The position numbers and the translations under genes were made by a program. From the NCBI GenBank assembly GCA_016180945.1, contig JACPAG010000003.1, positions 107,394 through 171,393 of the forward strand: a DNA stretch of 64,000 nucleotides, given 5' to 3'. How positions within the stretch are numbered: the stretch's first letter is position 1; every line of letters begins with the position of its first letter. Under the pieces are notes generated by a model. The model saw nothing but the letters and a program-made list of their open reading frames with translations. It did no database searches and was not told the origin of the DNA. Shown piece after piece: positions 6,045-63,431 of this stretch. This DNA is from Candidatus Aenigmatarchaeota archaeon (GTDB lineage: Archaea; Aenigmatarchaeota; Aenigmatarchaeia; GW2011-AR5).

Positions 6045-6773
6045 ATGGCGCTTCTCTATATAATCTCAGCAGTAATAGTGGTCAGCCTTATATCGCTTGT
6101 TGGCGCGTTGACAATAGCCGTCAACAAGAGACTTCTCAAAAAAGTGCTGTTCACCTTTGTAAGCTTCGCCGTAGGCACTTTGCTTGGCGTCTCTTTTCTG
6201 GATTTGCTCCCGGAAGCAATGGGGTACGGCATAAAAAGCGTTTTTATATTCCCCCTCTTGGGAATAATATCCTTTTTTATCTTGGAGAAGTTCATATTCT
6301 GGCACCACAGGCACGAAGAAAAAGAAATACACTCGTTTACTTATATGAATCTCATCGGCGACGGCCTGCATAATTTCATAGATGGCGCCGTCATAGCTGC
6401 AAGCTTTTTGCACAGCATCCCGTTAGGCGTAGCGACCACGATAGCTATAGCTTTTCACGAGATTCCGCAGGAGATAGGCGATTTTGGCGTTTTAATTTAC
6501 GGCGGCTTCTCCAGAACAAGAGCGTTATTTTTCAACTTTCTTTCCGCCCTTACGGCGATAATCGGAGCATTTGTAGGATTTCTATTCCTCAGCCATTTCA
6601 ACAATTTGCTGCCTTTTCTCTTGGCATTTACAGCCGGTAATTTCATTTACATCGCCGGCGTGGACCTGCTGCCGGAATTGAGAAAAGAGAGGGGCGCCAG
6701 AACGTCTTTAGTCCAGCTCATTTCTATCATTGTCGGCATCCTTGTCGTGATGCAGATAAATACTGTGGTCTGA
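6045..6773 (+). CDS. ZIP family metal (zinc) transporter
   Basis: Polytopic membrane protein with the HEIPQEIGDFGVLI signature. The ORF-track start 5952 overlaps the previous gene, so Met at 6045 (MALLYII...) is preferred. Confidence 0.8.
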   Translation: MALLYIISAVIVVSLISLVGALTIAVNKRLLKKVLFTFVSFAVGTLLGVSFLDLLPEAMGYGIKSVFIFPLLGIISFFILEKFIFWHHRHEEKEIHSFTYMNLIGDGLHNFIDGAVIAASFLHSIPLGVATTIAIAFHEIPQEIGDFGVLIYGGFSRTRALFFNFLSALTAIIGAFVGFLFLSHFNNLLPFLLAFTAGNFIYIAGVDLLPELRKERGARTSLVQLISIIVGILVVMQINTVV

Positions 6774-6787
6774 AGACCACAGTATTC

Positions 6788-6850
6788 TCGTAGGAATTAA
6801 GAATATTATAAACTACCTGAAGGTCGTAGTGTTAAACTTAATTCCTACGA
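6788..6850 (+). repeat. nested hairpin (14-bp outer stem enclosing an inner hairpin)
   Basis: TCGTAGGAATTAAG (6788-6801) pairs perfectly with CTTAATTCCTACGA (6837-6850). Preceded by the hairpin ACTGTGGTC-TGA-AGACCACAGT that overlaps the ZIP gene stop. Confidence 0.6.
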
Positions 6851-6853
6851 TAA

Positions 6854-7405
6854 TTACGCTATTCCCTGAATAAGCGCCAGAACAAATATCCCGAAAGGAT
6901 ACCCTGCAAGCATGTTGAATACCACGCTTGTCACAGCGCTTAAAATATCCACGGGCTTTGAAATCATGAATTTCTCGGCGAATGCAAAAAAGACGTCCTT
7001 TGCCACGGCCGTTATGAACACCTTTATGAGAAATGAAAACGGCGTCAGGAAGCCAGCCACTAATGCCCCTAATGCATCAACAACATTATAAGGCGAAGGC
7101 ACGAACAACGGCCATTCCGGCTGCGGCAGCGGCAGGAAAAGATACTTGAGACCGTGAAGAATTGGAATCAAAACCAGTAAAAAAAAGAAGGCGAACCACG
7201 GCCCGTACAGCATAGCCAGTATGACGCTCAGGACTGTTGTCAGTTCGACGCCAAAATACCGCACCGCCCCGAAGGCGCTTATTATTGTTTTGTCTATCCA
7301 CAAGAAAACAAAAAGTATCGCCAGCCTGAAATCGAGAACGGCGAAAATAACAAAGCCGGCTATTAAAGTCAGGATAAGGAACGCTACCCCTTTTAAAAAG
7401 TCCAT
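6854..7405 (-). CDS. polytopic membrane protein, unknown function
   Basis: 183 aa, several hydrophobic spans, no recognised motif. Confidence 0.5.
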   Translation of the reverse strand: MDFLKGVAFLILTLIAGFVIFAVLDFRLAILFVFLWIDKTIISAFGAVRYFGVELTTVLSVILAMLYGPWFAFFFLLVLIPILHGLKYLFLPLPQPEWPLFVPSPYNVVDALGALVAGFLTPFSFLIKVFITAVAKDVFFAFAEKFMISKPVDILSAVTSVVFNMLAGYPFGIFVLALIQGIA

Positions 7406-19452: not shown

Positions 19453-19471
19453 GAATGCTCCCTAGGGGAAG
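19453..19471 (+). repeat. putative attR core
   Basis: 18/19 identity with 7476-7494. Preceded by the hairpin GGAGCAT...ATGCTCC. Confidence 0.5.
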
Positions 19472-19625
19472 TTCCCAGCTTTTCCGCCAGCGCTTTTCAG
19501 CAGAAAAGGGCTGTTTTGAACCCCTGTTTCAAGCTGCTTCCGTTTCTTTCCAGGGTTTCTTCCTAAGAAAGCCTCGAGAAGCTCGCATCCTTGACCGGAC
19601 TAGACGAAGGGAGCTTTCTAATTAA

Positions 19626-19754
19626 TACCACACATACCACCAATCTTTAGATGGTGGTAGTATCAGTGGTATGTGGAGTGTAAAAAACACTGCTATAGTA
19701 TCAGTGGCATCAGATCTAATAGATGTCACTGCATTTATGCAGTGGTTTTTCACA
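19626..19754 (+). repeat. family-B nested-hairpin element, copy 1
   Basis: Upstream hairpin CCACATACC...GGTATGTGG, then outer stem TGTAAAAAACACTGC (19679-19693) / GCAGTGGTTTTTCACA (19739-19754) enclosing an inner hairpin. The same frame occurs at 25210-25287. Confidence 0.6.
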
Positions 19755-19804
19755 AAATTGTCAAATCTTTATACACAAAAAGACTATAAATACAGGATTG
19801 TGGT

Positions 19805-20440
19805 ATGGCACCCGGTTCAAAAATAACACAGCAAGAGGTATGGGGCTCAATAGCCGAGCCATGGCACCGGGCAAGAACAAGAATGTATGACGACCTGAAG
19901 GAGTTTCTAAGAAACAACACCGGCAGAAATTTTGTGCTGGATTTGGGCTGCGGCTCCGGCCGCAGTTTTATGGCAGGCAAAAAATACGTAGGCGTGGATT
20001 TTTCTGAAAATATGTTAAGGCATGCGAAACAGAATGCAGAGAAAAATGGAATAGAAGCTCACTTGGTTAAGGCTGATGTATGCCACCTGCCTTTCAAATC
20101 AAATTCATTCAATACGGCCCTGCTTGTTGCCACCCTCCATTCAATGGAAGACCGTGCCATGTGCTTGGAAGAAATGAAAAGGGTTATGGAAAAAGGCAGC
20201 GAAGCCTTCGTAACCGTCTGGAACAAAAACCAGCCAAGATTTTTAATGTCAAAAAAAGAAAGCTATGTGCCTTGGAAAGTAAGCGGCAAGATTTATTGGA
20301 GATATTATTATCTTTTTGCCGAAGGGGAATTAAGAAAACTTCTCTCCGCCTACTTTAACGTCAAAAAAATATACGGCGGCAGGGAGAGGGTTTTAAAGTT
20401 ATTCCCGAAGAATATTATCGCTATCGTGAAGAAGATGTGA
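19805..20440 (+). CDS. class I SAM-dependent methyltransferase
   Basis: Motif I VLDLGCGSGR, then a post-I acidic residue and Methyltransf_11-like layout. Confidence 0.8.
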   Translation: MAPGSKITQQEVWGSIAEPWHRARTRMYDDLKEFLRNNTGRNFVLDLGCGSGRSFMAGKKYVGVDFSENMLRHAKQNAEKNGIEAHLVKADVCHLPFKSNSFNTALLVATLHSMEDRAMCLEEMKRVMEKGSEAFVTVWNKNQPRFLMSKKESYVPWKVSGKIYWRYYYLFAEGELRKLLSAYFNVKKIYGGRERVLKLFPKNIIAIVKKM

Positions 20441-20603: not shown

Positions 20604-20696
20604 CTTTGTTGAAAAAGTCGTGTGCATCTGTTTGATGCACACATACGGGTAACCCATTGGCGTCAAAACAGCCAATGGGTTTCTTTTTCAACAAAG
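20604..20696 (+). repeat. nested hairpin element between the two tRNA-Leu genes
   Basis: 14-bp outer stem CTTTGTTGAAAAAG / CTTTTTCAACAAAG encloses two perfect hairpins (GTGTGCATC...GATGCACAC and AACCCATTGGC...GCCAATGGGTT). Flanked by GGATAAAAT direct repeats. Confidence 0.6.
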
Positions 20697-20717
20697 CAGG
20701 ATAAAATGTATCAAGTC

Positions 20718-20836
20718 GCGAGAGTAGCCAAGTCAGCCCGGCATCTTAGAAGATGCCGTTCCTTGATTGGTCAAAGGCGCAAGGTTCAGGGCCTTGTCCC
20801 TTAGTGGGTTCGTCGGTTCAAATCCGGCCTCTCGCA
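20718..20836 (+). tRNA. tRNA-Leu (anticodon CAG) with a ~35-nt intron in the D-loop
   Basis: GCGAGAG-TA-GCC-AAGT[CAGCCCGGCATCTTAGAAGATGCCGTTCCTTGATT]GGTCAAA-GGC-G-CAAGG-TTCAGGG-CCTTG-TCCCTTAGTGGGTTC-GTCGG-TTCAAAT-CCGGC-CTCTCGC-A. Without the insert the D-loop (AAGTGGTCAAA) matches that of the neighbouring tRNA-Leu. Confidence 0.8.
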
Positions 20837-20838
20837 TC

Positions 20839-20993
20839 AATTATCGGATTTCCGTGAAGAAAATAATTTTCTTCAGGATGCCAAAGAACTTTTAGTTCTT
20901 TGAGCATGAACCTCGGTTCATCTTCGGCTGAGCGAAGCTCGCCGAGACCTCAAAGAAGCTCTGCTTCTTTGCAGGAATCCGGCCCTTCGCATC
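20839..20993 (+). repeat. hairpin array bracketed by a duplicated tRNA-Leu(CAG) 3' end
   Basis: AATCCGGCCTCTCGCATC (20821-20838, tRNA 3' end) recurs as AATCCGGCCCTTCGCATC (20976-20993). The 137 bp between them are consecutive hairpins. Confidence 0.55.
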
Positions 20994-21035
20994 TGCTTTC
21001 TTTAAAAAGAAAGTAGCCAAAGAAATTCATTAATT

Positions 21036-21452
21036 ATGTACCGAAAAGGAGTTCTTGGAATAGTAATAGACAAACGCAAGAGATTTCTTATTCTGTGCCG
21101 TGTCCTTCACTGGCGCGGCTGGGAATTCCCGAAAGGCGGCATAGATAAAGGCGAGACCGCCGAAGAAGCGCTGCTTAGGGAAGTAAAAGAAGAAACCGGG
21201 CTGGATGCAAAAATTATCTGCAGAATGCCATACGTAATTACTTATGATTACCCTGAAAGTTTCATAAAAAAGACAAAAACAAAATATGCCGGTGCAAAGC
21301 AGACGGTCTATCTTCTTTTAGCTGGCGGCAGTGTAAAGTTGTCCAAAGAACACAAAAAATTCAGGTGGGCCTCTTACAAGCAGGCAAGAAAGCTGTTGAA
21401 ACACGAAAGCCAGAAGAAAGCTCTTGATGCCGCTTACCAGTATGTTATCTAA
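21036..21452 (+). CDS. Nudix hydrolase
   Basis: Nudix box GGIDKGETAEEALLREVKEETGL. Confidence 0.85.
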   Translation: MYRKGVLGIVIDKRKRFLILCRVLHWRGWEFPKGGIDKGETAEEALLREVKEETGLDAKIICRMPYVITYDYPESFIKKTKTKYAGAKQTVYLLLAGGSVKLSKEHKKFRWASYKQARKLLKHESQKKALDAAYQYVI

Positions 21453-21566
21453 GAAGACATTGAAAACTGCCGTCTTTAGACGGCAGATGAAATACAATGT
21501 CTTCTGGATCCCATCTTCTCACAAACCACCGACTTTAGTCGGTGGTATATAAAGAAGATGTGATTT
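21447..21566 (+). repeat. family-A modular nested-hairpin element, copy 1 (120 nt)
   Basis: Frame ATCTAAGAAGACATTG...CAATGTCTTCTGGATCCCATCTTCTCAC...ACCACCGACTTTAGTCGGTGGT...AAGAAGATGTGATT, with one extra hairpin (CTGCCGTCTTTAGACGGCAG). Its TAA supplies the Nudix gene stop codon. Confidence 0.8.
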
Positions 21567-23443: not shown

Positions 23444-23446
23444 AAT

Positions 23447-23536
23447 TATCTAAGAAGACATTGAAAATGTCTTCTGGATCCCATCTTCTCACAAACCACC
23501 GACTTTAGTCGGTGGTATAATAAGGAAGATGTGATT
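23447..23536 (+). repeat. family-A element, copy 2 (minimal 90-nt frame)
   Basis: TATCTAAGAAGACATT-GAA-AATGTCTTCT-GGATCCCATCTTCTCACAA-ACCACCGACTTTAGTCGGTGGT-ATAATAAGGAAGATGTGATT. Fills the spacer between the methyltransferase start and the lysS stop. Confidence 0.8.
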
Positions 23537-25162: not shown

Positions 25163-25287
25163 ATCTGGCATTCCACTGTTTTAAAACAGCGGTGGAGTGG
25201 AATGCTGGCTGTAAAAAACACTGCATTAATATCCGTGGCTTCAGTAATCGTAAAGAAGCCACTGCCTTTAGGCAGTGGTTTTTCACA
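25163..25287 (+). repeat. family-B nested-hairpin element, copy 2
   Basis: Upstream hairpin CTGGCATTCCAC...GTGGAATGCTGG, then TGTAAAAAACACTGC (25210-25224) / GCAGTGGTTTTTCACA (25272-25287) enclosing GTGGCTTC...GAAGCCAC and CACTGCCTTTAGGCAGTG. Confidence 0.6.
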
Positions 25288-27036: not shown

Positions 27037-27150
27037 AAATAGGTATCAAAATAATATGGCAATCAACTTGCGAAGTGTAGCGACCAAACCTTACAAACGA
27101 ATGCCATAAGAATTCGTTACATCGAAGAACCGTTTACGGTTCTTCGAATG

Positions 27151-31555: not shown

Positions 31556-31589
31556 AAAGAAGTATTGACAGTACCCTTTAGTCCATATC

Positions 31590-31877
31590 ATCTAAGAAGA
31601 CATTGAAAACTCCTACCTTTAGGTAGGAGATGCAAGCAAAAGCAAAGCTTTTGCTGCACAGAAAGACCTGAAGGGTCTTTCTTGTGAAATACAATGCAAG
31701 CAGAAAGCAAAGCTTTCTGATGCTACAGAAAACAAGGTTTTCTGTATGTCTTCTGGATCCCATCTTCTCACACAAGAAGGAACCGTGTTCCTTCTGTGCA
31801 GACAACGAAGAACCTTTTGTTCTTCGATGTCTTGCAAACCACCGACTTTAGTCGGTGGTATACAAAGAAGATGTGAT
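31590..31877 (+). repeat. family-A element, copy 3 (expanded, 288 nt)
   Basis: Same frame as the other copies, plus seven additional perfect hairpins: five inside helix 1 and two inside helix 2. Confidence 0.8.
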
Positions 31878-44666: not shown

Positions 44667-44725
44667 CCTTAAACTAATTAGAATGAAAAATATTTATATG
44701 TTCTTTTACTCAGCCACGCTCGCCA

Positions 44726-44810
44726 CCATAACTTTGTTCTTCTCGGCCACAGAACCGCTCTTCGTCCAGTTGCTCAGTATCAGCTGGTGCGCCTCGCATG
44801 GCGTCCAGCA
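44726..44810 (-). pseudogene. displaced duplicate of the radical-SAM gene 3' end
   Basis: 79/85 nt identical (by-eye alignment) to 45704-45788, the true 3' coding end of the radical-SAM gene. Would encode ...WTKSGSVAEKNKVMVASVAE*. Confidence 0.7.
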
Positions 44811-44816
44811 CTAAGT

Positions 44817-45128
44817 TCACTGCATATACTTTTTTGCCGCCTTTCTGCTCTTCATACCCTGCTCAACGGTACCGCCAAGTTTCACGCCATGCTTCTCAGC
44901 AAGCTTGCATACGTCGTACACTGAGACTTTTAGCAGTTCTGCTGCCTTTCCTATAGAGATTCTCCCCAAAGAAACAATCTCCAGTACATATTCTTCAGCG
45001 CCCAAGTGCAGAAGCTGCCTCAATGCTGTAGACTGATCTACGTATTCTTCTTTGCTTCTTAGGGCTGCCAATTCTACAATCTCCTTAGGTATTCTTAATG
45101 GATACGATACAGTTTTCATTTTAATCAC
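44817..45128 (-). CDS. UPF0175-family putative antitoxin
   Basis: 103 aa. LRIPKEIVELAALRSKEEYVDQSTALRQLLHLGAEEYV...GKAAELLKVSVYDV. Overlaps the upstream PIN gene. Confidence 0.6.
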   Translation of the reverse strand: MIKMKTVSYPLRIPKEIVELAALRSKEEYVDQSTALRQLLHLGAEEYVLEIVSLGRISIGKAAELLKVSVYDVCKLAEKHGVKLGGTVEQGMKSRKAAKKYMQ

Positions 45129-45695: not shown

Positions 45696-46772
45696 TTATT
45701 CCGCCATAACTTTGTTCTTCTCAGCCACAGAACCGCTCTTCATCCAGTTGCTTAATATCAGTTGGTGCGCCTCGCAAGGCGTCCAGCAGTTGGGGCACTG
45801 CAGCTTTTCCGTCTTTTCCTTTGTTATTCTTGTCTGTTCCGACCCAAGTATTTTCCTCAGGTCATAATCCGTTTCTCGTAAATTTCCTACTTTCTCGTTG
45901 AAGATTATGCACGGAAATACGTTTCCCCAGGGGTCGACGAAGCAGGACATGTCCATTATGTTGCACGGCATCGGCGTCTTGCCTTGCTGCAGGTATTGGA
46001 TGCCCATCTGCAGGTACCTGTTTTCAATGGTTCCGATTATCCCTTTTTTCTGCCGCATTGAAAGTATGGACTCAATCTCCTTTATCGCCTTTGCTGCATA
46101 GCCGTCCGGCAGCTGCGCTCCGCCAGTATGGAAATATGTTTCCGATGTCTGGTAGATATTGACATGAAAATCATTGACGGTTATTTCTGGCATTATTTCC
46201 TTTATACCAGAGAGCATTTTGCTGAAGACGCCCACGTTTTCAGGATACATCGTATAGCCGAAGAACACGCCGAAATTTTTATGGTCTTTTTTCAATGCCC
46301 GCAGCTTCTGGTAAAGACTTATTGCCCGGTCCCAGTTGCCAGGAACCCCCCTGACTCTGTCGTGCGTCTCCTTGTCGCCGTCCAGGCTGACAGTGATCAC
46401 GTATTTCTTGTCAAAGAACTCCAGCACTTGGCAGATTTTCTTGTATATGTCATCAGGCATGATAGAGTTCGTCGGCGTCGTTACTACGTATAGGTTTGGC
46501 AATTTGCTGAAAGCCCTTACTATCTCAACATAATCCTTTCTCAGCGTCGGCTCGCCGCCCGTTAGCCGGACCCACTGGATGAACGGAATCTTGCTGACGA
46601 ATTTTTCTATCTCTTCAAGCGTTAGCTCGTTTTGCGGTTTCAGCTCCCATATCTTGCAAAAAGTACAACGCGAGTTGCACCAGTAGGTGATTGCAAAATT
46701 AAGCTGGTAAGGCATTGAAAAGCCCAGGTTTGTCGCAGCGATTTTATAGCCGAGTTTTATTTGCGATAGCAT
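45696..46772 (-). CDS. radical SAM protein with Cys-rich (SPASM-like) C-terminus
   Basis: CNSRCTFC (CxxxCxxC) near the N-terminus. C-terminal ...MPCNIMDMSCFVDPWGNVFPC...CPNCWTPCEA. Confidence 0.8.
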   Translation of the reverse strand: MLSQIKLGYKIAATNLGFSMPYQLNFAITYWCNSRCTFCKIWELKPQNELTLEEIEKFVSKIPFIQWVRLTGGEPTLRKDYVEIVRAFSKLPNLYVVTTPTNSIMPDDIYKKICQVLEFFDKKYVITVSLDGDKETHDRVRGVPGNWDRAISLYQKLRALKKDHKNFGVFFGYTMYPENVGVFSKMLSGIKEIMPEITVNDFHVNIYQTSETYFHTGGAQLPDGYAAKAIKEIESILSMRQKKGIIGTIENRYLQMGIQYLQQGKTPMPCNIMDMSCFVDPWGNVFPCIIFNEKVGNLRETDYDLRKILGSEQTRITKEKTEKLQCPNCWTPCEAHQLILSNWMKSGSVAEKNKVMAE

Positions 46773-46798
46773 TTATCTTATCCCCAAAGTTTTTGTTT

Positions 46799-47039
46799 AT
46801 CTAAGATGAACATTGAAAACCATGGTCTTTAGGCCATGGATAAAATACAATGTTCATCTGGATCCCATCTTCTCACACAAGAAGGAACCGTGTTCCTTCT
46901 GTGCAGACAACGAAGAACCTTTTGTTCTTCGATGTCTTGCAAACCACCGACTTTCCGTCAGAAACCAGAGGTTTCTGCGGAATTCAGGAAAGCTCTGCTC
47001 TCCGTGAATTAGTCGGTGATATATAAGGAAGATGTGATT
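46799..47039 (+). repeat. family-A element, copy 4 (241 nt)
   Basis: Helix 1 is changed on both arms (GATGAACATTG / CAATGTTCATC). Carries a 56-nt two-hairpin insert inside the CTTTAG loop (46954-47009). Confidence 0.8.
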
Positions 47040-47840: not shown

Positions 47841-48419
47841 ATGACAAGATATATAAATCGTACTTCCTATACATTACTTATGGCAGCGGCAATAAACTTC
47901 GACCGTATCTTCTTCCACCGACGTCATTACGGCGTTATGCTGTCCGTGATATTTCTCGTTCTGTTAGTCGGGCTGGCCATGCTTTACCAGTACCAGAGAC
48001 CAAAGCATCAAGCGTCGCAAGACACCCCCTCAATCAGCAGAGAGGAAGCTGAAAACATAAAAATGCAGCAATACGGCGGTAATAAACCACAGCGCATTGA
48101 TTTGCCCAGTTTTTCTGCTGCTTCTTTATGCAAAGAATTTGGTAACATTTCAAGTGAAATTAGCTGCGAAAAGGCCGCAGAGGCTGCCCTGATAAATTAT
48201 AGCGGGGATATTTTATCTATAAGCAAAAAGGAGAATTCTATAGTTGGCATATCGCGCAACGGGTCTACGGCGCAAATCAAAAGCACCATCTGGATTATCC
48301 AGATGAATTTGTACGAGTCCAAGGAAGTAAAACTGCCGGATGGCAGCTCAGAGTTCAGGTATAGGGCATCTATAGCAGTCGATGCCAAAAAAGGTAACGC
48401 ATATCTGTATGGTGTTTGA
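47841..48419 (+). CDS. membrane-anchored hypothetical protein
   Basis: 192 aa. One TM span (VMLSVIFLVLLVGLAMLY) and a ~130-aa ectodomain. Its stop overlaps the start of the next gene. Confidence 0.45.
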   Translation: MTRYINRTSYTLLMAAAINFDRIFFHRRHYGVMLSVIFLVLLVGLAMLYQYQRPKHQASQDTPSISREEAENIKMQQYGGNKPQRIDLPSFSAASLCKEFGNISSEISCEKAAEAALINYSGDILSISKKENSIVGISRNGSTAQIKSTIWIIQMNLYESKEVKLPDGSSEFRYRASIAVDAKKGNAYLYGV

Positions 48420-48424
48420 TAAGT

Positions 48425-50584
48425 ATGAAAATACATTCTTTTGTTTTTCCTGTAGCAATGTTGGCTTTCTTGATTGTCAACACTGGCATTTCATTGGCAA
48501 GCGTTTGTTACGGGCCTGTTGATGGGTGCTATGCCTCTGGGGTTTGTAGTAGCAATTGTGATGCGTGGTGTCAAGGTCAGGGATATACAGGGGGTGCATG
48601 CCAAGGTTCAACATCTTCCTGTGGTGACACGAATTATCCTGAATCATGCAATTGTTATAATAGTCTGACATGCCCTGCCAGCTGCAGCGCAACTTCCGCA
48701 GCATGCAATCCAACGCCGTCATGCTGGACATGCACGAGCGATAACAGTTACACCAATTGGATAGGCGACGCAGCCTGTGATGATTTCTGCGGCGAAACCT
48801 CAGGTCCTGGTTCATGTCATTCTGCTGCATGCGTGACATCAACTACAACCTCAACATCTACGAGTACAAGCACCAGTACTTCCACATCTACCAGCACTTC
48901 TACTTCCACCACCTCTACGTCCACCTCGACATCAACATCCACTTCAACATCAACAAGCACATCGACATCAACGAGCACTACTAGTACTTCAACATCCACC
49001 ACCTCAACCTCCACAAGCACTTCAACCAGCACGACGACTACGGCGCCTGGAGGTTGCCCGGCACCTACAATTCGCGATTTCTCTCATACGGAGAACACCT
49101 TGCTTATAGCACTTAACAAAGTGTCTCAGGCAGACCATTACGAGGCTCAATGGTGCATGAACGAGCACGGCGTATCCTCTTTCACCGATCCTCTATGCTG
49201 TAGCAATCCTAATGGTTGCTCCAAAACCGTTGCAGTTGGAAGCTCTCCTTGGGATGTGACCGTTCCTGCATACCATCATATTGATATAGAAAACTATGTT
49301 GATACGTCATCAACACCAAATGCACTTTTCTCGAAAACGAAATATAACATGCGGGTAAGGTCGATATGTGGCACCTTGCAAAGTGGATGGACGCCAGCGG
49401 ACAATGACTGGCTTGGTTGCACCGTTTTGGGCTTCTGCTACGGCACAGGAGATACGACATGCTCGAATCTAGTGAAGACAGGAACCCCATCCTCAGAGTC
49501 TGTACAATTTGGCCCACCTGGTTCGTGTTCTGTTAGCGTCGCACCATACGCGCAGAAAACAGGCGCGCCAATAGGCGCATATGGAAATACTTTCGTATCT
49601 ACATCAGGCGTCTTAACCGTGAAAAAATTTGAATTTGACGATCAGGACGGCGGAAGCTGCGACATAGACTACGGATTTACAAATAGTTGGTCAAAACCGC
49701 AGACAGACTGGCTAGACGTGCATGCAAAAGTCTACAGGAAAGACGGCGGCAGCAATCAGCAGGAAATAGGCTTCAGGGTATGGACGATATCATCAAACTG
49801 TGGAATAAGGAAATGGAACGGAGTAACTTCAACTTGGGGAGACTGCCTATCAACAACTGACCTGTCAAAATTATCGCCAAACGCCGTTCCTGGAAACGAC
49901 ATAGGCTCGACTTATAACATAGAATATTGCGGCGACGGGACTGTAACCAGCGGCTTGGCAGGCTGCACTGCATCGGGAGTTAACGAGATCTGCGACCCGC
50001 CTGGGAGCTGGCGCGGAACTTGCAGCGTGGGGAATACAAGAACAGAGGACCAGTGCAACAGCGCCTGCACTGGAAATGCTGATACGAACTCCTGTGAATC
50101 AGACTGTGGAGCCGAAGTTGCATGCGATGAAAAGAACATAGGAGATCTGTGTATAACTGGAAACGGGGATAATGGAACGTGTACTAGCTTATGCGAATGT
50201 AGGGCTAGCTGCACTAGAAATGCAGACTGTGGTGCAGGCAGATGCTGCCTTGGTCATACAGCGCCGCCAGAAGCCGCTGGACCTCTATACGGAACAGGAG
50301 ACCGGGCTGCTGCCACTTGTGTTAGCAAACAGGTGTATGCTGCAAATTCCGCTTATCTCTGCGACCCTGGAACATGGATTGTATGCGACGAAAGCAAAGT
50401 AGGTATCAAGAAGGAATTTGATAATCGTGTTTTCGTTTGTATCAAAGAAAACGAAACTTACAAATGGATTGAAACGACAGCCACTCAGTTACCGCAGCCA
50501 ACCAAAAGCGAAGAATTTGTTATAGATTTGCCGAATATCTTCTCAGAGATAATAAAGCTGTTCGCAATGATGTTTGTACTCTAA
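48425..50584 (+). CDS. large secreted Cys-rich protein with (Thr-Ser)n linker
   Basis: Signal peptide MKIHSFVFPVAMLAFLIVNTGISLASV, a ~110-aa Cys-rich head, a ~65-aa TSTSTS linker, then a ~500-aa Cys-containing body. Confidence 0.7.
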   Translation: MKIHSFVFPVAMLAFLIVNTGISLASVCYGPVDGCYASGVCSSNCDAWCQGQGYTGGACQGSTSSCGDTNYPESCNCYNSLTCPASCSATSAACNPTPSCWTCTSDNSYTNWIGDAACDDFCGETSGPGSCHSAACVTSTTTSTSTSTSTSTSTSTSTSTSTTSTSTSTSTSTSTSTSTSTSTSTTSTSTSTTSTSTSTSTSTTTTAPGGCPAPTIRDFSHTENTLLIALNKVSQADHYEAQWCMNEHGVSSFTDPLCCSNPNGCSKTVAVGSSPWDVTVPAYHHIDIENYVDTSSTPNALFSKTKYNMRVRSICGTLQSGWTPADNDWLGCTVLGFCYGTGDTTCSNLVKTGTPSSESVQFGPPGSCSVSVAPYAQKTGAPIGAYGNTFVSTSGVLTVKKFEFDDQDGGSCDIDYGFTNSWSKPQTDWLDVHAKVYRKDGGSNQQEIGFRVWTISSNCGIRKWNGVTSTWGDCLSTTDLSKLSPNAVPGNDIGSTYNIEYCGDGTVTSGLAGCTASGVNEICDPPGSWRGTCSVGNTRTEDQCNSACTGNADTNSCESDCGAEVACDEKNIGDLCITGNGDNGTCTSLCECRASCTRNADCGAGRCCLGHTAPPEAAGPLYGTGDRAAATCVSKQVYAANSAYLCDPGTWIVCDESKVGIKKEFDNRVFVCIKENETYKWIETTATQLPQPTKSEEFVIDLPNIFSEIIKLFAMMFVL

Positions 50585-51831: not shown

Positions 51832-52080
51832 TTGAAAATATCTCACAGGGTGTTAAAAATGAGCGAGATAGTGTTTAATCCTAAAATATTGGGCGGCAAG
51901 CCTGTAATAAAAGGAACGAGGATTTCAGTAGACTTTATTCTGGAACTTTTATCTTCAGGCATGTCCGTCGACGACATTATAAGAGAATATCCCCACCTTA
52001 AGAGACAGGATATTTTGGCTGCGCTGAATTACGCAGCAAAAGCGATCAAAAAGGAAGAGATTATATCGCCCTTAAAGTAG
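51832..52080 (+). CDS. DUF433-family putative antitoxin
   Basis: PKILGGKPVIKGTRISVDFILELLSSGMSVDDIIREYPHLKRQDILAALNYA. The likely start is the Met at 51859. Confidence 0.7.
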   Translation: MKISHRVLKMSEIVFNPKILGGKPVIKGTRISVDFILELLSSGMSVDDIIREYPHLKRQDILAALNYAAKAIKKEEIISPLK

Positions 52081-52091
52081 TGGGTTTTGAA

Positions 52092-52445
52092 ATGAAATTA
52101 AAGCTTCTTACAGACGAAAATATAGCGAAGTCTGTGGTTAACGCCCTGCGCAGAACAGGCTACGATGTTAAGGATGTAAAGGAAGAAAAACTTTTTGGAA
52201 TAAGTGACGAAGAAGTACTCGAGCTTGCGAACAAAGAAAATAGGGTAATTATTACCCACGACAAAGATTTTGCAAATCTGATTAACAACCCGAATCAAAA
52301 GCATTCTGGCATTGTGTTAGTGCGATTTTCTGACCAGACTCCAGAAAATGTAATAAACAAACTTCTGCCTTTGTTGAAGAAGTTAAGGGACAAGATAAAA
52401 AATGCATTTTTACTAGTTGCCGACGATATGGCAAGAATTATTTGA
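52092..52445 (+). CDS. DUF5615 / Mut7-C-like PIN-type putative toxin
   Basis: MKLKLLTDENI... and VIITHDKDF. The usual partner of DUF433 genes. Confidence 0.65.
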   Translation: MKLKLLTDENIAKSVVNALRRTGYDVKDVKEEKLFGISDEEVLELANKENRVIITHDKDFANLINNPNQKHSGIVLVRFSDQTPENVINKLLPLLKKLRDKIKNAFLLVADDMARII

Positions 52446-52657
52446 GTCGTATATAAAAGTTGCGATGAAATTTATCTGCAACGTCATTGAAAACTACTAT
52501 GCTGAAAAAGACCTGAAGGAAGAACAAAGAAGCTGATTTAGCATTTATGCGGTTGAATTGTCCCAGCGAGCCAGCGAATTCTTAGAAAGGGCTTTTGCAA
52601 AAGTCTTATGCCAGTGGTATCCGCCAGCTTTAAATAGCACTGGTATACTAATACTAC

Positions 52658-52906
52658 TTGGTGGAAAAAGTGGAAAAAACTATTAAAGTAAGCGAAAAAA
52701 CCTATAGGAGGATAAACGAACTCGTAGGAGCATTGAGGGAAAAGAAAGGAAAGCCCGTTTCCATTAATGAGGCACTTTCAGAAGTATTGACTGAAATGAA
52801 AAAGTCTAAACCGTCCGATTTCGCGGGGAGCTGGAAGATGAGCGACAAAGAAGCGGCCAATTTAAAGAAGGAAATAAGAGAATTGTGGAAATCATGGAAA
52901 ATATAG
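52658..52906 (+). CDS. putative VapB-type antitoxin
   Basis: 82-aa ORF overlapping the downstream PIN gene by 22 nt. Non-ATG start in the ORF track. Confidence 0.5.
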   Translation: MVEKVEKTIKVSEKTYRRINELVGALREKKGKPVSINEALSEVLTEMKKSKPSDFAGSWKMSDKEAANLKKEIRELWKSWKI

Positions 52907-53295
52907 TTTTCGATTCGGATATACTGATAGATTTGGTTAAGGGCGCACCAAAAGTAGTGGAGACTGTAAAAAAGTTAGAGGTCGAGAATGAACTGTATAC
53001 GACAGACATAAACGCCTTTGAACTTTACTGGGGAGCCTATAAAAGCAAATATCATGAAAAAGAGCTCGCATCTGTAAAAGGTTTATTGAATACGTTTCGT
53101 TTAATAGGCACAAACGAAAATTCAATGGAAGTTGCGGCAAAAATTATAGCTGATCTGGAAAAGAAAGGCAAGCCAGTAGCATTGAGGGATTTATTCATCG
53201 GCGCTATGTGTCTTGCTAATTCTTTCAGGCTTTTCACAAGAAACACAAAGCATTTCAAAAATATGGAAGGATTAAAAATTATTGAGGTCGAATGA
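52885..53295 (+). CDS. vapC: PIN-domain toxin
   Basis: IVFDSDILIDLVKG (first acidic residue) ... LFIGAMCLANSFRLFTRNTKHF. Confidence 0.8.
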   Translation: MEIMENIVFDSDILIDLVKGAPKVVETVKKLEVENELYTTDINAFELYWGAYKSKYHEKELASVKGLLNTFRLIGTNENSMEVAAKIIADLEKKGKPVALRDLFIGAMCLANSFRLFTRNTKHFKNMEGLKIIEVE

Positions 53296-53913: not shown

Positions 53914-56880
53914 ATGCGTATATCGGCAATCTTAATAGTTGTTACAATATTTGCAGTCTTGTTATCTAACACTTCTTATGCCGCTTTAGCTGATGCTTGG
54001 AATATTTGTAAGTCATCAGCTAGTGCCTGTCCTGATACAAATACGCGCGACTACGCAGTAGGGTGCTTTTACAATGACCCACAAGATACAGTAGACTCAT
54101 ACTGTTGCTCATATCCGAATACCGATGACCTAACGAGTCCTGCTGCCTCGACGTATATACCTTATAAATGGAAACTTGGTGGTGCAACGCAAGGTGCCGG
54201 CTGCAGCTGCGCAGTTGATGACGGCTTCGTCATCCCGAATACTGGCGTCTGGCATTACGCAGACGAATCAAGCGGAGGCAGCAGAAAAGGTGTCCACAGC
54301 CCTCGTCCAGACGACTCCTATACATTCTACGAAACGCCACATAGATATTCTAGATACATGTCATGCGGCGAAAGCGGCTTGTTTACATGCCCTGCAGGAA
54401 GCACTGGCATAAAATTCTGGGTTAGGGCTCAGACAGAAAATGGCCCAGACAAGTTAGAAATTAAAAACAGTGCCGGCACAGTTTATGCAACTTTGACTGG
54501 TCAATATGATCCAGATGGTGACGATGACGTTACCGAATACTTTTCGACAGACGTTTATCCGCAAACCACAGCAAAATTCCTATTCACCTCTGATGTGAGC
54601 TATCAAACCTGGGGCGTTGATGTTTATGGCATAAAGTGCATGGGAGGGGATTCCACATCCACCAGCACATCAACATCTACTTCAACAAGCACTAGTACTT
54701 CCACTTCAACTTCTACGTCCACCAGCACGTCATCAACATCCACAAGCACCTCAACATCTACGTCCAGCACAAGTACTTCATCCACCAGCACATCCACTTC
54801 AACAAGTACTTCAACGTCAACCACAAGTACAAGCACGTCTACAACCACAACCATCCCTTGCGTCCATGCGAATCCTTCTGTGACTATAACCCCTTCGCCG
54901 CAGAATGACGTAGCCGGCTCGGCGCTGGCATATACCGTCGCGGTGACAAACAACGATGCAAGCTGCGGCTCGGAAACGTACAGCTTACGCAGTTCAGGAA
55001 CAGCCTGCACCGCTCCCTGGTCCTGCTCATTAGCTTCATCGTTGGGGCCAATTGCATCAGGCTCTTCTGGTTCGACTGCAATAACCGTTACATCGCCTGC
55101 CGCTGCTGCCACAGGCAGCTACCTATTTTCAGTGACCGCCTCTATTGCATCGCCTGCACATACAGGAACCGGCTCTGCAACTTACGTAGTCAGCGACTTT
55201 AGTGTTGTCGCAACATCAGCCATTTTTGTAACAAAGCCGCAGACCGTCTCAAGGGACGGCACAGGCACGATAACCGTAGGCTCTGTCAACAGCTTTAGTT
55301 CGCCTGTAGCGCTGTCTGGAGCCTGGTTTGATTTAATCGGTAATCCTATTGCAGCCCCGTCTGGTGTTTCAACAACCTATAATCCTTTATCAGTTACCCC
55401 ATCTGCCGGCGGCTCGGCTGCATCAACATTGACAATTACCGTTCCATCAACAGCCGCTACAGGAACATTTATTCTCAGGACAACAGGCACTCGGAACAGT
55501 ACAACACACGCGTTTGATACGAAGGTTATTATAAGCTCTTACGGTCTGGAATTTAAGCCGAAAAGCAAGACCTACGTAGGTAACGATTATGTCTGGGGTG
55601 ACGGTGATGTGGACAAATGCGACCTCCCTGATGCTGGAAAATGTATAAACGTGACAGACAAATCCGAACTTCCCGGTAATCCGCAGATAACATATGGCAT
55701 TGCATCCAAAACCCGCACCGGAGCATGTGATGCCGCCAACACAGACATATTTGACGCTGACGGCGTGGTCGTAACCCAGTTCAAAATCCAGAAAGGCACT
55801 ACAATAACCAATCCTTTCAACATAAGGGTCAAGGCAACGGACGATACGTTCTGCACGCTTTCATTCAAAGTAGTCGCCCCTGACAGCGCCGAAGTCGACC
55901 CAAGCTTCACCGTTAACCCTGCTGGTCCGCTGCCGCCTCCTGGCCCTGTCGGGATGAGTATAGAAGTCAAGTACCCGTTCGCCGAGAAGAAGCTTATACC
56001 GCTGACTGGCGGAAAGCCGGATTTCACCAAATCAATGCCTATAGGGTTTTTAATAAAGGCAAGGTCACTTGACCTGCTGCCAGTAGACTGCACCTTTGAT
56101 AACTGCGAGGTCAAATACGGCATAAAGGAAAAAGACGGCACGCCGGCCGTTCCGGACGGCGCAGTTTTCCCTGCGTGCGCCGGCAACGAGTATAAACCCG
56201 GCCAGTGCGCAGCCTTTGACAAGTTCACGCCCATAGGCCCTGCATGGAAGGCCCAGCGGCCGAGCAAAGACCTGTTAAGCGGCGTTATAGACCTGGCATG
56301 CGATGCTGATTATACGCTTGTTATAAAAACCAGAATAACATCCGGCCTTGGTGTCGGCGCATCCGGCTCGCTGGAAACGCCAATCCACATAAACTGCAGG
56401 CCGCGCTTAACGGTCGACCCGCCTGAAAAATCTGTCGTTTTGAACCAAAATAACGCAGATGCCTTCACGGTAACCGTCTGGGACCCCCAGACAAGAACTT
56501 ATGCATTGGGCATGACAAATGCAAAACCAGAGCATACATTCCTGGCAGGCGCCGACAGGTGGATAGAATTTGTATGTCCTTCGGCTCCTGTATCATGCAG
56601 CGCGGATAAGCTTCAATTAAGCGGCATACAATCCGGCAGCGAAACGCCTCCGCAGTTTACCGTCCGCCTTACAACCAAAGCAGCGGTAAGGGCCGGCAAC
56701 TTCCCGGTGCGCTTCACAGCATCGGCGACAGGCATCACGCCTGCCGAAACAGAAGCGACAATCAAGGTCTTTGCCGAAGGCCTCAATGAATTCGCATTAT
56801 GGCAGCTGGCTGTACTTGTTATTCTGAGCACAGCATTTGTTTACAGGCAGAGCATTGGAAAAAAGCGGAATAGTACCTAA
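53914..56880 (+). CDS. giant cell-surface protein (signal peptide, Cys-rich head, CUB-like segment, TS linker, Ig-like repeats, C-terminal TM anchor)
   Basis: 988 aa. N-terminal signal ILIVVTIFAVLLSNTSYA. KFLFTSDVSYQTWGVDVYGIKC resembles the end of a CUB domain. ~65-aa TSTSTS linker. C-terminal anchor LAVLVILSTAFVY followed by basic residues. Confidence 0.7.
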   Translation: MRISAILIVVTIFAVLLSNTSYAALADAWNICKSSASACPDTNTRDYAVGCFYNDPQDTVDSYCCSYPNTDDLTSPAASTYIPYKWKLGGATQGAGCSCAVDDGFVIPNTGVWHYADESSGGSRKGVHSPRPDDSYTFYETPHRYSRYMSCGESGLFTCPAGSTGIKFWVRAQTENGPDKLEIKNSAGTVYATLTGQYDPDGDDDVTEYFSTDVYPQTTAKFLFTSDVSYQTWGVDVYGIKCMGGDSTSTSTSTSTSTSTSTSTSTSTSTSTSSTSTSTSTSTSSTSTSSTSTSTSTSTSTSTTSTSTSTTTTIPCVHANPSVTITPSPQNDVAGSALAYTVAVTNNDASCGSETYSLRSSGTACTAPWSCSLASSLGPIASGSSGSTAITVTSPAAAATGSYLFSVTASIASPAHTGTGSATYVVSDFSVVATSAIFVTKPQTVSRDGTGTITVGSVNSFSSPVALSGAWFDLIGNPIAAPSGVSTTYNPLSVTPSAGGSAASTLTITVPSTAATGTFILRTTGTRNSTTHAFDTKVIISSYGLEFKPKSKTYVGNDYVWGDGDVDKCDLPDAGKCINVTDKSELPGNPQITYGIASKTRTGACDAANTDIFDADGVVVTQFKIQKGTTITNPFNIRVKATDDTFCTLSFKVVAPDSAEVDPSFTVNPAGPLPPPGPVGMSIEVKYPFAEKKLIPLTGGKPDFTKSMPIGFLIKARSLDLLPVDCTFDNCEVKYGIKEKDGTPAVPDGAVFPACAGNEYKPGQCAAFDKFTPIGPAWKAQRPSKDLLSGVIDLACDADYTLVIKTRITSGLGVGASGSLETPIHINCRPRLTVDPPEKSVVLNQNNADAFTVTVWDPQTRTYALGMTNAKPEHTFLAGADRWIEFVCPSAPVSCSADKLQLSGIQSGSETPPQFTVRLTTKAAVRAGNFPVRFTASATGITPAETEATIKVFAEGLNEFALWQLAVLVILSTAFVYRQSIGKKRNST

Positions 56881-59867: not shown

Positions 59868-59879
59868 TTCGGCTTACTT

Positions 59880-60160
59880 ATCTTAGATTCATTGAAAACA
59901 CACGACTTTAGTCGTGTGATGCAAGCAGAAGCTTCGCTTCTGCTGCACAGAAAGACTCCTAGAGTCTTTCTTGTGAAACACAATGAATCTGGGATCCCAT
60001 CTTCCAACACAAGAAGGAACTATGTTCCTTCTGTGCCGAAGGACTCATAGAGTCCTTCGTGCAAACCACCGACTTTCCGTCAGAAACCAGAGGTTTCTGC
60101 GGAATTCAGGAGAGCTCTGCTCTCCGTGAATTAGTCGGTGGATATAAGGAAGATGTGATT
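59880..60160 (+). repeat. family-A element, copy 5 (281 nt)
   Basis: Helix 1 is changed on both arms (AGATTCATTG / CAATGAATCT). Same 56-nt loop insert as copy 4 (60076-60131). Five additional hairpins. Confidence 0.8.
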
Positions 60161-60912: not shown

Positions 60913-61007
60913 TTTTTTTTCAAAAATTTTATATGGGAGCAGGTCAATATAATTACTACTGGTTATGCGGGAAATGAAACCGCAGCTATTATGAGGGAAG
61001 TTGATAA

Positions 61008-61121
61008 GAAACCGTAGGTGTCTTATATGCACTGCAGATTCAGTAAAGGGAAATGAATGAGAAACCGTAGGTGTCTTATATGCACTGCAGATTCAGTAAA
61101 GGGAAGTAGGTGTCTTATATG
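61008..61121 (+). repeat. 53-bp tandem duplication of an SD-ATG leader, creating twin 9-codon uORFs
   Basis: GAAACCGTAGGTGTCTTATATGCACTGCAGATTCAGTAAAGGGAA occurs twice (period 53). uORFs 61027-61056 and 61080-61109 both encode MHCRFSKGK. A third partial unit supplies the ATG at 61119 of the downstream gene. Confidence 0.85.
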
Positions 61122-61985
61122 TACAGGCACATGGTAAAGAAGTTCGGCAACATAGGCATCAGGTACATGCCAAGCTATGTCGAGCCGCTCAAGGCGGAAC
61201 TCTCGAAAGCAAACCTCGGCATTTTGTTCGAAATTTATGTCGGCAGGATGCTCTTCGTTTCTTTTGCGTCTTTCATCGTTACGTTTTCCGTTGTCTTTGC
61301 TATATCGCTTGTTTTCACCCTCCCGTTGATGATAGCCCTCTTCAGCGGCCTGATAGCAGCGGCAACAATTGCGCTTATAGTGTTAACCTTGTACCACTCT
61401 TATCCGTTTCAGCTGCTGACAACAAAGAAGAATATGATAGACACAAACATGCCCTTTGCAATAAACCACATGGCGGCTATCGCATCCGCAGGCGTCCCGC
61501 CTTTCGTCATATTCAGGCTGCTTGGGGATATCAAGGAATACGGAGAAATCAGGCACGAGGCAAAAAGAATTGTCAGGAACATAGAAGTTTTTGGCATGGA
61601 CCTGACGACAGCCATCCAGAACGTTGCGGAAAGAACGCCTTCCGACACCTTCCGCCAGTTCTTGTACGGCATCGTTTCTACCATAAACACAGGAGGCGAC
61701 CTGAAGAAGTTTTTCGAAAATTCTGCAAAAGACGCATTGTTCGATTACCGTCTGAAAAGGGAAAAGTATATGAAGACGCTGGAAACATACGCGGACTTTT
61801 ATACTGCCGTCCTCATCGCCGCTCCTTTGTTTTTCATATCCATACTCGCCGTCATGGCGCTTATCGGCGGCAATGTCTTCGGCCTTAGCATTCCGCTGGC
61901 AATGCGCATAGGAATATTTGTATTGATACCGCTGCTGAACACGGCATTCATAATGTTCATCCACTATACGCAGCCGAAAGTGTAA
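61119..61985 (+). CDS. type II secretion system F-domain membrane protein (TadB/ArlJ-like, N-terminal half)
   Basis: Polytopic, with a cytoplasmic helical domain (AINHMAAIASAGVPPFVIF...IEVFGMDL). Adjacent to a second F-domain gene. Confidence 0.7.
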   Translation: MYRHMVKKFGNIGIRYMPSYVEPLKAELSKANLGILFEIYVGRMLFVSFASFIVTFSVVFAISLVFTLPLMIALFSGLIAAATIALIVLTLYHSYPFQLLTTKKNMIDTNMPFAINHMAAIASAGVPPFVIFRLLGDIKEYGEIRHEAKRIVRNIEVFGMDLTTAIQNVAERTPSDTFRQFLYGIVSTINTGGDLKKFFENSAKDALFDYRLKREKYMKTLETYADFYTAVLIAAPLFFISILAVMALIGGNVFGLSIPLAMRIGIFVLIPLLNTAFIMFIHYTQPKV

Positions 61986-62848: not shown

Positions 62849-63070
62849 ATGAAAGAGTTTGAGGCTAAACCAAAGAAATGGGGGAATTCGCTAGGCATAA
62901 CAATCCCGAAGGAGATTATAGAAAAGGAAGGCATCAAGGAAGGCAAAAATGTTAAGGTCTTCGTCATCGTAGAAAAGAAGAGCACGCTCAAAGAAATGTT
63001 TGGCTCCCTGAAAGGATGGAAAAAACCAACGCAAAAAATAATGAAAGAGATAGACGAAGGGTATGACTGA
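62849..63070 (+). CDS. AbrB/MazE/SpoVT-type antitoxin
   Basis: KKWGNSLGITIPKEIIEKEGIKEGKNVKVFV. Overlaps the downstream PIN gene by 8 nt. Confidence 0.75.
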   Translation: MKEFEAKPKKWGNSLGITIPKEIIEKEGIKEGKNVKVFVIVEKKSTLKEMFGSLKGWKKPTQKIMKEIDEGYD

Positions 63071-63431
63071 AACCTTTTTCTTTGATACCTATGCTTTTAT
63101 CGAAGTAATTAAGGGTAATGAAAATTACAAAAGATACAGTAATAGCAATCCCATAACTGCGATATTCAACATAAAAGAACTCTATTACATTCTGCTGAAA
63201 GACTTCGGAAAAGATATCGCCGATTTGCATGTGGATAAGTATGCTAATTTTGTGGTTGAGGCACCTCTCTGGGTAATAAAGAAGGCGATGGAATTCAAAT
63301 TACTCCATAAGAAGGAAAACTTAAGCTATACGGACTGCATAGGCTATATTCTGGCAATGAAAAGCGGAGTTAAGTTCCTCACAGGTGACAGCAAGTTCAA
63401 AGATAGGCAAAATGTAGAATTCGTCAGGTAG
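63063..63431 (+). CDS. vapC: PIN-domain toxin
   Basis: FFFDTYAFIEVIKGN ... YTDCIGYILAMKSGVKFLTGDSKF. Confidence 0.75.
   Translation: MTETFFFDTYAFIEVIKGNENYKRYSNSNPITAIFNIKELYYILLKDFGKDIADLHVDKYANFVVEAPLWVIKKAMEFKLLHKKENLSYTDCIGYILAMKSGVKFLTGDSKFKDRQNVEFVR

Follow-up and report, generated by a model that had tools for sequence, protein, structure and literature searches.

The 56-nt cassette and its host repeat

The window analysed here is a 64,000-nucleotide (nt) stretch of contig JACPAG010000003.1, taken from a metagenome-assembled genome (MAG) of Candidatus Aenigmarchaeota, a DPANN archaeon. It holds five copies (c1 to c5, all on the + strand) of an intergenic, non-coding, four-helix repeat of roughly 120 nt, and in c4 and c5 a 56-nt cassette composed of two hairpins lies inside the loop of a hairpin of this repeat. 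The cassette and its host are the subject of this report. The frame of the canonical host element runs from TTATC to GTGAT (120 nt in c1, about 115-120 nt in other copies), ends that are neither inverted repeats nor complementary. P1, a helix of 10-11 bp, closes the 5′ domain, which consists of CATTGAAAAC, a hairpin named hpA with a variable stem and a CTTTAG loop, and GATGAAAYACAATG. The linker GGATC leads to the helix P2, 12 bp long and with one fixed mismatch, which closes the 3′ domain of ACA, CAAACC, the hairpin P3 (again with a CTTTAG loop) and ATATAAGG. Copies of the repeat make up about 1.6% of the window, and related hairpin arrays occupy further DNA in it.

Direct reading of the sequence places GACTT, 56 nt and TAGTC at 60071-60136 in c5 and at 46949-47014 in c4. 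The uninterrupted P3 hairpin, GACTTTAGTC, is present in the three further copies c1-c3, where ACCACCGACTTTAGTCGGTGGT is read at 21525, 23495 and 31838, with 0 chance matches expected. A preliminary description, made from the letters alone, had proposed this loop, split in copies 4 and 5 and intact in copies 1-3, and was correct to the base; that the insert is two hairpins with a one-base difference between the copies was likewise confirmed by direct reading. The 56-mer occurs at only these two sites in the window (0 expected), and the difference is a G versus an A in the 5′ arm of the second hairpin. The first hairpin, H1, reads CCG-T-CAGAAACC/AGA/GGTTTCTG-CGG and the second, H2, AATTCA-G-GAGAGC/TCT/GCTCTC-CG-TGAATT. 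Host stem, H1 and H2 together fold as a three-way junction, the folding z-score of the whole c5 copy is −16, and the cassette regions of c4 and c5 are 98% identical over 84 nt. The boundary is ambiguous by at most two T in the window copies, where CT^, CTT^ and CTTT^ are all possible, and cassettes at other loci restrict the insertion point to CT^TTAG or CTT^TAG. Two independent short-read Logan assemblies from other samples, SRR12113424 and SRR12113422, start within H2 of c5 and extend into the flanking gene; because both span H2 into the neighbouring gene, the filled P3 loop of c5 is not an assembly artefact. The 56 nt are a discrete module and not a local oddity.

Besides this cassette, which we call type 1, the host repeat accommodates a second kind of block. 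Type-2 blocks, hairpin pairs with the form CA...TG, fill two slots, A2 (after GATG) and B (after ACA). The P1 domain of c5 contains hpA at 59899-59918, with a CTTTAG loop, and a type-2 cassette in slot A2 (~59920-59975); its P2 domain contains a type-2 cassette in slot B (~60010-60061) as well as P3. Although c3 and c4 match at 99% identity in the 101 nt leading up to the insertion point, c3 has an empty P3 loop and c4 a filled one. Copies c3, c4 and c5 are mosaic. Because c4 and c5 differ in their 5′ halves and outer flanks, they are not a simple segmental duplication; a recent duplication with shared flanks, one of the points that the preliminary description had named for its refutation, was not seen. 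Its statement that many unrelated hairpins of the window close on the same loop held in part. Most of them are hpA and P3 hairpins of the one repeat family, and other repeats account for the CTTTAG-type hairpins at 19636, 19727, 25259 and 27122. In the window as a whole, the tetraloop TTTA closed by at least 5 bp occurs 11 times on the + strand and once on the − strand, and the runner-up tetraloops occur three times each. A diverged relative of the frame on the − strand (Table 1) has the loop CTTCAG in both of its hairpins and no clear P2.

Several other hairpin-rich sequences lie in the window outside the five frames. Further intergenic arrays of near-perfect hairpins in the style of the cassettes are found at 2272-2436, 3261-3395, 20620-21013 and 27122-27147; their purine-rich arm comes first on the + strand, and their loops include AAA, TCT, TTT and TTTA. 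A repeat of ~90 nt is present in two copies (19620-19758 and 25196-25287) that lie 5.5 kb apart and are ~80% identical. Each copy ends with a hairpin with a (C/A)TTTA(G/T) loop and then a run of T. The first is preceded by the hairpin ACCACCAATCTTTAGATGGTGGT (19636-19658) and adjoins a tyrosine recombinase gene.

Recurrence of the cassette in other copies, elements and genes

A metagenome scan with the conserved core GGATCNCATCTTCYMACA as query gave at least 120 loci, and about 40 of those listed contained true copies; the metagenome copy counts below rest on the matches listed (loci outside the window are numbered here with the prefix L). A covariance model trained on 13 canonical copies recognised ~45 host-repeat copies. 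Across the 34 best model matches 98% of the cells were paired, 26 of the 38 pairs showed both-sided change, all four helices covaried, and none of 500 shuffles reached the observed covariation score. Since this alignment had been fitted to the covariance model, it favours the structure. The covariation of hpA is also evident by eye, its stems being unrelated between copies (CTGCCGTC, CACACGAC, GCACGGC, CTCCTACC and CCATGGTC), and P2 covaries in diverged subfamilies of the repeat as well.

The occupancy of the slots was counted by hand on 41 parsed copies. Slot A2 was filled in ~10 and slot B in ~13, and a cassette occupied the loop of two hpA and three P3 hairpins; one copy lacked hpA, and c3 alone carried a type-2 block inside the 3′ arm of P1. 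No partial cassette was seen in any loop of the parsed copies. Type-1 blocks have an H1 of 3 bp, a one-base bulge and 8-10 bp, followed by an H2 of 5-6 bp, an internal loop and 6 bp. They were found in five settings: the P3 loop of c4 and c5, that of L046, the hpA loops of L099 and L024, and a hairpin of L062 that is split between CCACCGTCTT and TAGACGGTGG and is part of a different multi-hairpin repeat. In all five the loop is split between CTT and TAG, so that homologous cassettes occupy the same point in three hairpin contexts (P3, hpA and a hairpin of another repeat). The H1 architecture of the window cassette recurs in L099, L024, L062 and L022. Homologues of its H2 with at most five substitutions occur in L099 and L062, a second H2 variant is common to L046 and L024, and each variant is thus present in at least two different hairpins.

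Near-identical hosts with and without a cassette are seen outside the window too, in agreement with the preliminary description. L099 has 62 nt in its hpA loop that L100 lacks, and the two frames otherwise differ by three single-base changes (one of them at the last base) and one loop flip. In two other Aenigmatarchaeota MAGs, L022 and L026, a homologue of the cassette lies in yet another element; its 19-nt H1 core is identical, the T bulge is present and H2 is similar. The H2 loop of L026 carries a further hairpin pair of 54 nt between GGAAAGCTT and TGCTTTCC, and the same loop is intact in L022. The nested architecture suggested earlier is therefore found in a cassette hairpin itself, and nesting in hairpin tips is real and recurrent. 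Elsewhere the module is thus met as homologues in other loops. The exact 56-mer is seen only in c4 and c5; it was absent from a scan of species-representative genomes, among which the window's genome is therefore not included. A free-standing copy was not found. As a separate observation, a second conserved multi-hairpin element of ~140 nt is present in two MAGs labelled 'uncultured archaeon' (L024:2410-2550 and L019:4490-4640), in L024 immediately after a frame copy.

The 19-mer of H1 was found at 22 loci among species-representative genomes, versus ~4 calculated by chance. These loci are mostly in DPANN MAGs, where the 19-mer adjoins similar purine-first hairpins. One MAG, whose title is Aminicenantes and whose genes are archaeal in type, contains the same ~50-nt hairpin pair in frame in three genes: in the N-terminal region of an FtsY-like protein (an SRP54-type GTPase), in the N-terminal extension of Spt5 and in the tail of a KOW-domain protein. 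Similar pairs are in frame in two Woesearchaeota genes. The in-gene pairs contain CAGAAACCAGAGGTTTCTG, lie outside Pfam domains and are translated as ...KEQSSFV.QKPEVSV.... Scans of viral contigs gave no true copy, every match being a false positive.

Table 1. Coordinates of the cassettes, the frame copies and the open reading frames (ORFs) with in-frame hairpin pairs (positions in the window unless a locus is named)
Feature	Position	Strand	Remarks
Type-1 hairpin-pair cassette in frame c5	60076..60131	+	splits the P3 loop between GACTT and TAGTC; sequence reading, independent assemblies
Second type-1 cassette, in frame c4	46954..47009	+	single mismatch, GGAAAGC vs GGAGAGC
H1 of cassette	60077..60102	+	3 bp, bulged T, 8-bp stem, AGA loop
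H2 of cassette	60103..60132	+	6 bp, internal loop, 6-bp stem, TCT loop
Host hairpin P3 of c5	60066..60141	+	arms 60066-60074 and 60133-60141; cassette enclosed, T-shaped three-way junction
Frame c1	21445..21564	+	canonical, every slot empty; between the convergent stop codons of NUDIX and GT2 genes
Frame c2	23446..23535	+	minimal, without hpA; fills the gap between the class I lysyl-tRNA synthetase (LysRS) and methyltransferase genes, both on the − strand
Frame c3	31588..31877	+	P3 loop empty (CTTTAG); slots A2 and B filled; extra type-2 cassette within the 3′ arm of P1
Frame c4	46797..47038	+	slot A2 empty; slot B and P3 loop filled
Frame c5	59878..60159	+	TTATC...GTGAT; P1 5′ domain, P2 3′ domain
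Diverged frame relative	6752..6855	−	28.4 bits, E = 3e-4; TTATC start, P1, hpA-like and P3-like hairpins
ORF with in-frame pair	L013:3871-5331	+	FtsY-like
ORF with in-frame pair	L020:559-1068	−	KOW-domain
ORF with in-frame pair	L023:5336-6175	−	Spt5
ORF with in-frame pair	L014:1193-2530	−	kinase-deaminase fusion
ORF with in-frame pair	L016:1-1542	+	transglutaminase-like protein

Probable mobility of the host repeat and proposed origin of the cassettes

About 40 of the 41 parsed copies of the host repeat are intergenic. Their orientation relative to the neighbouring genes is same/same in 14 cases, opposite/opposite in 10, divergent in 6 and convergent in 5, and it is mixed within single contigs (L062, L134 and L137). 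A rule tying orientation to the replicating strand, suggested by the five window copies all being on the + strand, was dropped in view of these three contigs and of the − strand relative at 6752-6855; the GC skew of the window tracks gene orientation and is uninformative on the direction of replication. Two relatives, with LysRS identities of 86% and 83%, retain the LysRS-GT2-NUDIX synteny without c1 and c2, and the c1 site is empty in the relatives L025 and L026. At this site L025 reads cagtacG^TGATTTAAGA and the window reads cagtatG + TTATCTAAG...GAAGATG + TGATTTAGA. The comparison suggests, from a single reconstructed empty site (n = 1), that the frame inserted adjacent to TGAT without duplication. 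No direct repeats were found in the flanks of 35 copies, and the frame has neither the terminal inverted repeats nor the target-site duplication of a classical MITE (miniature inverted-repeat transposable element). The host repeat comes and goes between related genomes and behaves as mobile DNA, not as an RNA gene.

The opposite view, that the host is a functional structured multi-copy RNA in whose loops and junctions the cassettes are tolerated as optional expansion domains, is the least likely of the explanations that we considered. The strong covariation of four helices, the conserved junctions (CATTGAAAAC, GATGAAAYACAATG, GGATC and CAAACC), the very low folding z-scores and the almost exclusive placement of cassettes in unpaired regions of the fold are all what such an RNA would predict. 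Strand symmetry tells a different story: across 35 copies, 82 of the 2050 pairs formed by one strand are G·U, against 76 of 2055 for its complement, and the folding energies are equal. Moreover, the loop is inverted from CTTTAG to CTAAAG with unchanged stems in three hpA and three P3 hairpins, and from TAC to GTA in one slot B hairpin, changes that alter an RNA loop and leave the DNA palindrome unaltered. Because symmetric G·U use and loop flips are unexpected under selection on one RNA strand, these observations favour DNA palindromes over an RNA gene. Also unfavourable to an RNA are orthologous sites of relatives that lack the copies, the occurrence of one domain in two different helices, orientation independent of neighbouring genes and an upstream flank without conserved promoter-like sequence. 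At the Rfam gathering score the sole match in the window was a tRNA, and nothing credible matched copy c5 even at E <= 10. Other ideas were discarded. The TATA-like ATATAAGG near the 3′ end of the frame was rejected as a promoter, the downstream gene being co-oriented in only about half of the cases. By eye, the cassette ends are not complementary, so an archaeal intron would lack the central helix of a bulge-helix-bulge, and there is neither a D box nor a standard kink-turn that would fit a C/D-box or kink-turn RNA.

The cassettes, including the related blocks in hairpin tips and genes, are probably small mobile DNA modules. We favour, with moderate confidence, a reading in which a mobile palindromic cassette was joined into exposed hairpin tips. 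The 56 nt would belong to a family of small palindromic DNA cassettes, hairpin pairs with conserved bulge positions, and would have entered the apical loop of a DNA hairpin in one piece, at the dyad centre (CTT^TAG). The tip, in single-stranded or extruded DNA, would be cut or used as an entry point, a cassette copy from another element would be joined in without target duplication, and repeated rounds would produce the nested, mosaic elements c3-c5. The agent may be a trans-acting structure-specific enzyme; within this reading, a dedicated protein of this kind is only moderately likely. Cassettes are present or absent with base precision at hairpin dyad centres, recur in unrelated stems and nest. 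We infer that the events were gains, since empty loops prevail in each subfamily and no loop holds a partial cassette. The earlier proposal of hairpin modules that insert into hairpin loops stands as far as homologous cassettes that split CTT and TAG in three hairpin contexts are concerned; no enzyme, free-standing copy or polymorphism came to light to complete it.

These three negatives, and some positive observations, weigh against our reading. An enzyme of the IS200/IS605 type, which the preliminary description had put forward, was not found: a Y1/HUH profile built from four solved TnpA structures had no match at E <= 10 in 10,636 six-frame ORFs of the 64-kb window and 1.1 Mb of related loci, Pfam recognised no IS200/IS605 enzyme and only a tyrosine recombinase in the ~40 window ORFs, and clustering of multi-copy ORFs revealed nothing transposase-like in the window and related loci. 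There was no autonomous copy, core matches without the tail being cysteinyl-tRNA synthetase genes and other coding false positives, and no cassette alone between unrelated flanks was seen within the lineage of the window. Filled and empty alleles at one orthologous locus, also anticipated earlier, were not encountered when the flanks of 147 loci were compared by BLAST, which returned only identical duplicates or deep orthologues; the orthologous site of L046 and L138 is too diverged for the boundary to be placed. The exact 56-mer is confined to c4 and c5, which share identical P3 arms, and because of this identity homologous exchange between the two needs no transposition. A microhomology of 2-3 nt (TT, TG, CA, AA or ATG) at every optional block fits slippage or deletion equally well, and perfect stems could be maintained by intrastrand templated correction instead of selection.

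Much of this would be expected if no enzyme were involved. In the main rival explanation, a serious one that we nevertheless judge rather unlikely, a replication fork stalls at a hairpin tip, and the nascent strand moves over to a second copy's tip by way of the shared loop and loop-proximal bases (GNCTT...TAGNC), copies the cassette there and returns; slippage deletes cassettes, and templated correction keeps the arms complementary. Template switching of this kind accommodates the microhomology just described, the 5-nt identities GTCTT/TAGAC or GACTT/TAGTC that flank the cassettes, the mosaicism of c3, c4 and c5, the symmetric G·U use and near-perfect arms, and the lack of a transposase among the window ORFs and related loci, and it yields loop flips as an expected by-product of strand switching in inverted repeats. 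It is less comfortable with a single cassette family that occurs with both kinds of flank in unrelated stems, for this would demand repeated switches on 3-5 nt of homology, or with an insertion point identical to within one base in five contexts. Nor does it account readily for near-identical pairs in three unrelated genes of one genome, where there is no hairpin tip for entry. A further alternative turns the direction around: the three-way junction would be ancestral, the 56 nt would have been retained, and the CTTTAG loop would be what precise deletion between the flanking T runs has left. The two-T ambiguity of the boundary would permit a deletion between TT repeats, decayed copies with imprecise deletions do exist (L035, L036 and L146), and the fullest copies (c3, c5, L024 and L046) resemble 'complete' versions. 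We consider it improbable all the same. The hpA and P3 loops are each empty in ~34-35 of the hand-counted parsed copies and filled in 2-3. The same cassette would have had to be present in both ancestral hairpins and then be lost dozens of times independently and base-perfectly, with no partial cassette in any loop, and b-type cassettes have a border repeat of just 1 nt. Ancestral retention and the functional RNA both fit the data less well.

Related systems and other features of the window

The element can be compared with several families of prokaryotic repeats and mobile DNA. The BOX elements of Streptococcus pneumoniae are likewise non-coding, strongly folding intergenic sequences that combine a constant frame with variable modules and encode no transposase, and in the present repeat, too, the frame is constant and the number of internal modules differs between copies. 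BOX elements vary by tandem boxB units and not by hairpin pairs at a hairpin apex, no specific loop target has to our knowledge been described for them, and they are bacterial and have no sequence relation to the repeat described here. The pneumococcal repeats BOX, RUP and SPRITE have been reported to insert into one another (PMC10969869). Repetitive extragenic palindromes (REPs) and the bacterial interspersed mosaic elements (BIMEs) built from them, which are associated with RAYT proteins, Y1 HUH enzymes like those of IS200/IS605, resemble the present elements as intergenic mosaics of short palindromes, as DNA whose single-stranded structure is, or here would be, recognised and as hairpins with conserved irregularities. 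We know of no REPs, palindromes of 20-40 nt, that nest in one another's loops. REP palindromes are described as bearing a GTAG or CGTC tag (PMC3733652). The present hairpins have no such tag, and no Y1 homologue was found in the window and the 1.1 Mb of loci.

Elements of the IS200/IS605 family and their derivatives without an ORF (palindrome-associated transposable elements, PATEs, and 'double hairpin' MITEs such as Nezha) have two subterminal hairpins, a conserved short flank, no terminal inverted repeats and no target duplication; insertion takes place 3′ of a fixed tetra- or pentanucleotide. The cassette with its two hairpins and CTT flank is similar, and the frame adjoins TGAT at the one reconstructed empty site. 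Subterminal imperfect hairpins at both ends without terminal inverted repeats are found in the cassette (H1 and H2) as well as in the frame (the P1 domain and the P2/P3 domain). The cassette is always bordered by CTT on its left side and by TAG on its right, the ambiguity not exceeding 1-2 nt; the flank of the frame is known from one empty site (n = 1). Unlike these elements, the present ones come with no TnpA in the window and the 1.1 Mb of loci and are in mixed orientation within contigs; the 56-nt cassette is far below the known minimal ends and has no room for the 10-19-nt linkers and guide tetranucleotides of IS608. IS1397, ISKpn1 and other REP-targeting insertion sequences enter extragenic palindromes specifically at the loop or centre; in contrast to a gene-less hairpin pair of 50-60 nt, they are full-size elements with their own transposase and target duplications. 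The inverted terminal repeats of the parvovirus AAV (adeno-associated virus) form T-shaped hairpins, a long stem capped by two small ones, that undergo flip/flop loop inversion. That likeness is architectural only, as the present elements are chromosomal and internal and have neither a Rep gene nor a telomere function.

Rickettsia palindromic elements (RPEs) are translated palindromic repeats that lie in frame within unrelated housekeeping genes (PMC10969869). L013, L020, L023, L014 and L016 contain related hairpin pairs that behave in this way. RPEs differ in being bacterial, 100-150 bp long and unrelated in sequence, and the in-frame location is a property of the related pairs in other DPANN loci and not of the window cassettes, which sit in non-coding hairpin loops. 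In behaviour, the closest systems are BOX, REP/BIME, RPE, the ORF-less IS200/IS605 derivatives and the REP-loop insertion sequences, and membership in none of them is established. Literature searches directed at hairpin or palindromic repeats in archaea and DPANN brought up no description of the present family, and a 2024 review of prokaryotic MITEs that names archaeal taxa with such elements lists no DPANN lineage (PMC10969869). What we describe is a real modular palindromic element, apparently undescribed, that resembles BOX, BIME and RPE and in which cassette insertion would be directed to hairpin tips.

If cassettes truly enter hairpin tips, they would be among the smallest mobile units known and would offer a clean case of targeting directed by structure rather than sequence, on a substrate that is well defined, CTT^TAG within a stem of 9 bp. 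The genomes of DPANN archaea are among the smallest of any cells. A broader claim, which we hold to be doubtful for now, is that these archaea carry a previously unrecognised form of minimal mobile DNA, namely gene-less hairpin pairs of 50-60 nt that a structure-specific enzyme inserts at the hairpin apex (CTT^TAG) and, with lower specificity, in unpaired or low-complexity stretches, coding sequence among them. Through recursive insertion, self-similar elements of many hairpins would then arise, and housekeeping proteins would gain peptide segments. The in-frame copies in the FtsY-like, Spt5 and KOW-domain genes suggest that core proteins are remodelled by the same process, much as by RPEs in Rickettsia. 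On the practical side, the repeats break short-read assemblies (Logan contigs end inside them) and give rise to spurious ORFs in MAG annotation.

A number of other features were recorded in the window. From ~8000 to 20000 the GC content is 34-38%, versus ~45% elsewhere, and several ORFs have no Pfam match; genes of this low-GC stretch encode a Schlafen/AlbA_2 protein (7620-8789), a nucleotide-cyclase-domain protein and a tyrosine recombinase (18083-19399, − strand), and the stretch may be an integrated element. The tRNA gene at 5168-5272 (− strand), found by Rfam and not by ARAGORN, has an insertion of ~35 nt in the anticodon-loop region that contains a perfect 10-bp hairpin (5217-5239) and is probably an intron. 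At 60994-61124 a 53-nt unit is repeated ~2.5 times in tandem with 92% identity, upstream of and into the start of an ORF at 61110, and a 28-mer related to this unit is present at 32743. Degenerate short repeats of the type CATCAACATCCAC at 48837-49032 and 54656-54842 lie within the long ORFs 48416-50584 and 53914-56880; the products are probably large secreted or surface proteins, of which the repeats would encode low-complexity segments. A direct repeat of 102 nt with 88% identity connects 44723-44824 and 45701-45802, and small genes of the toxin-antitoxin type (PIN, DUF5615 and MazE-like according to the Logan annotation) are located at 52080-53295 and 62849-63431.

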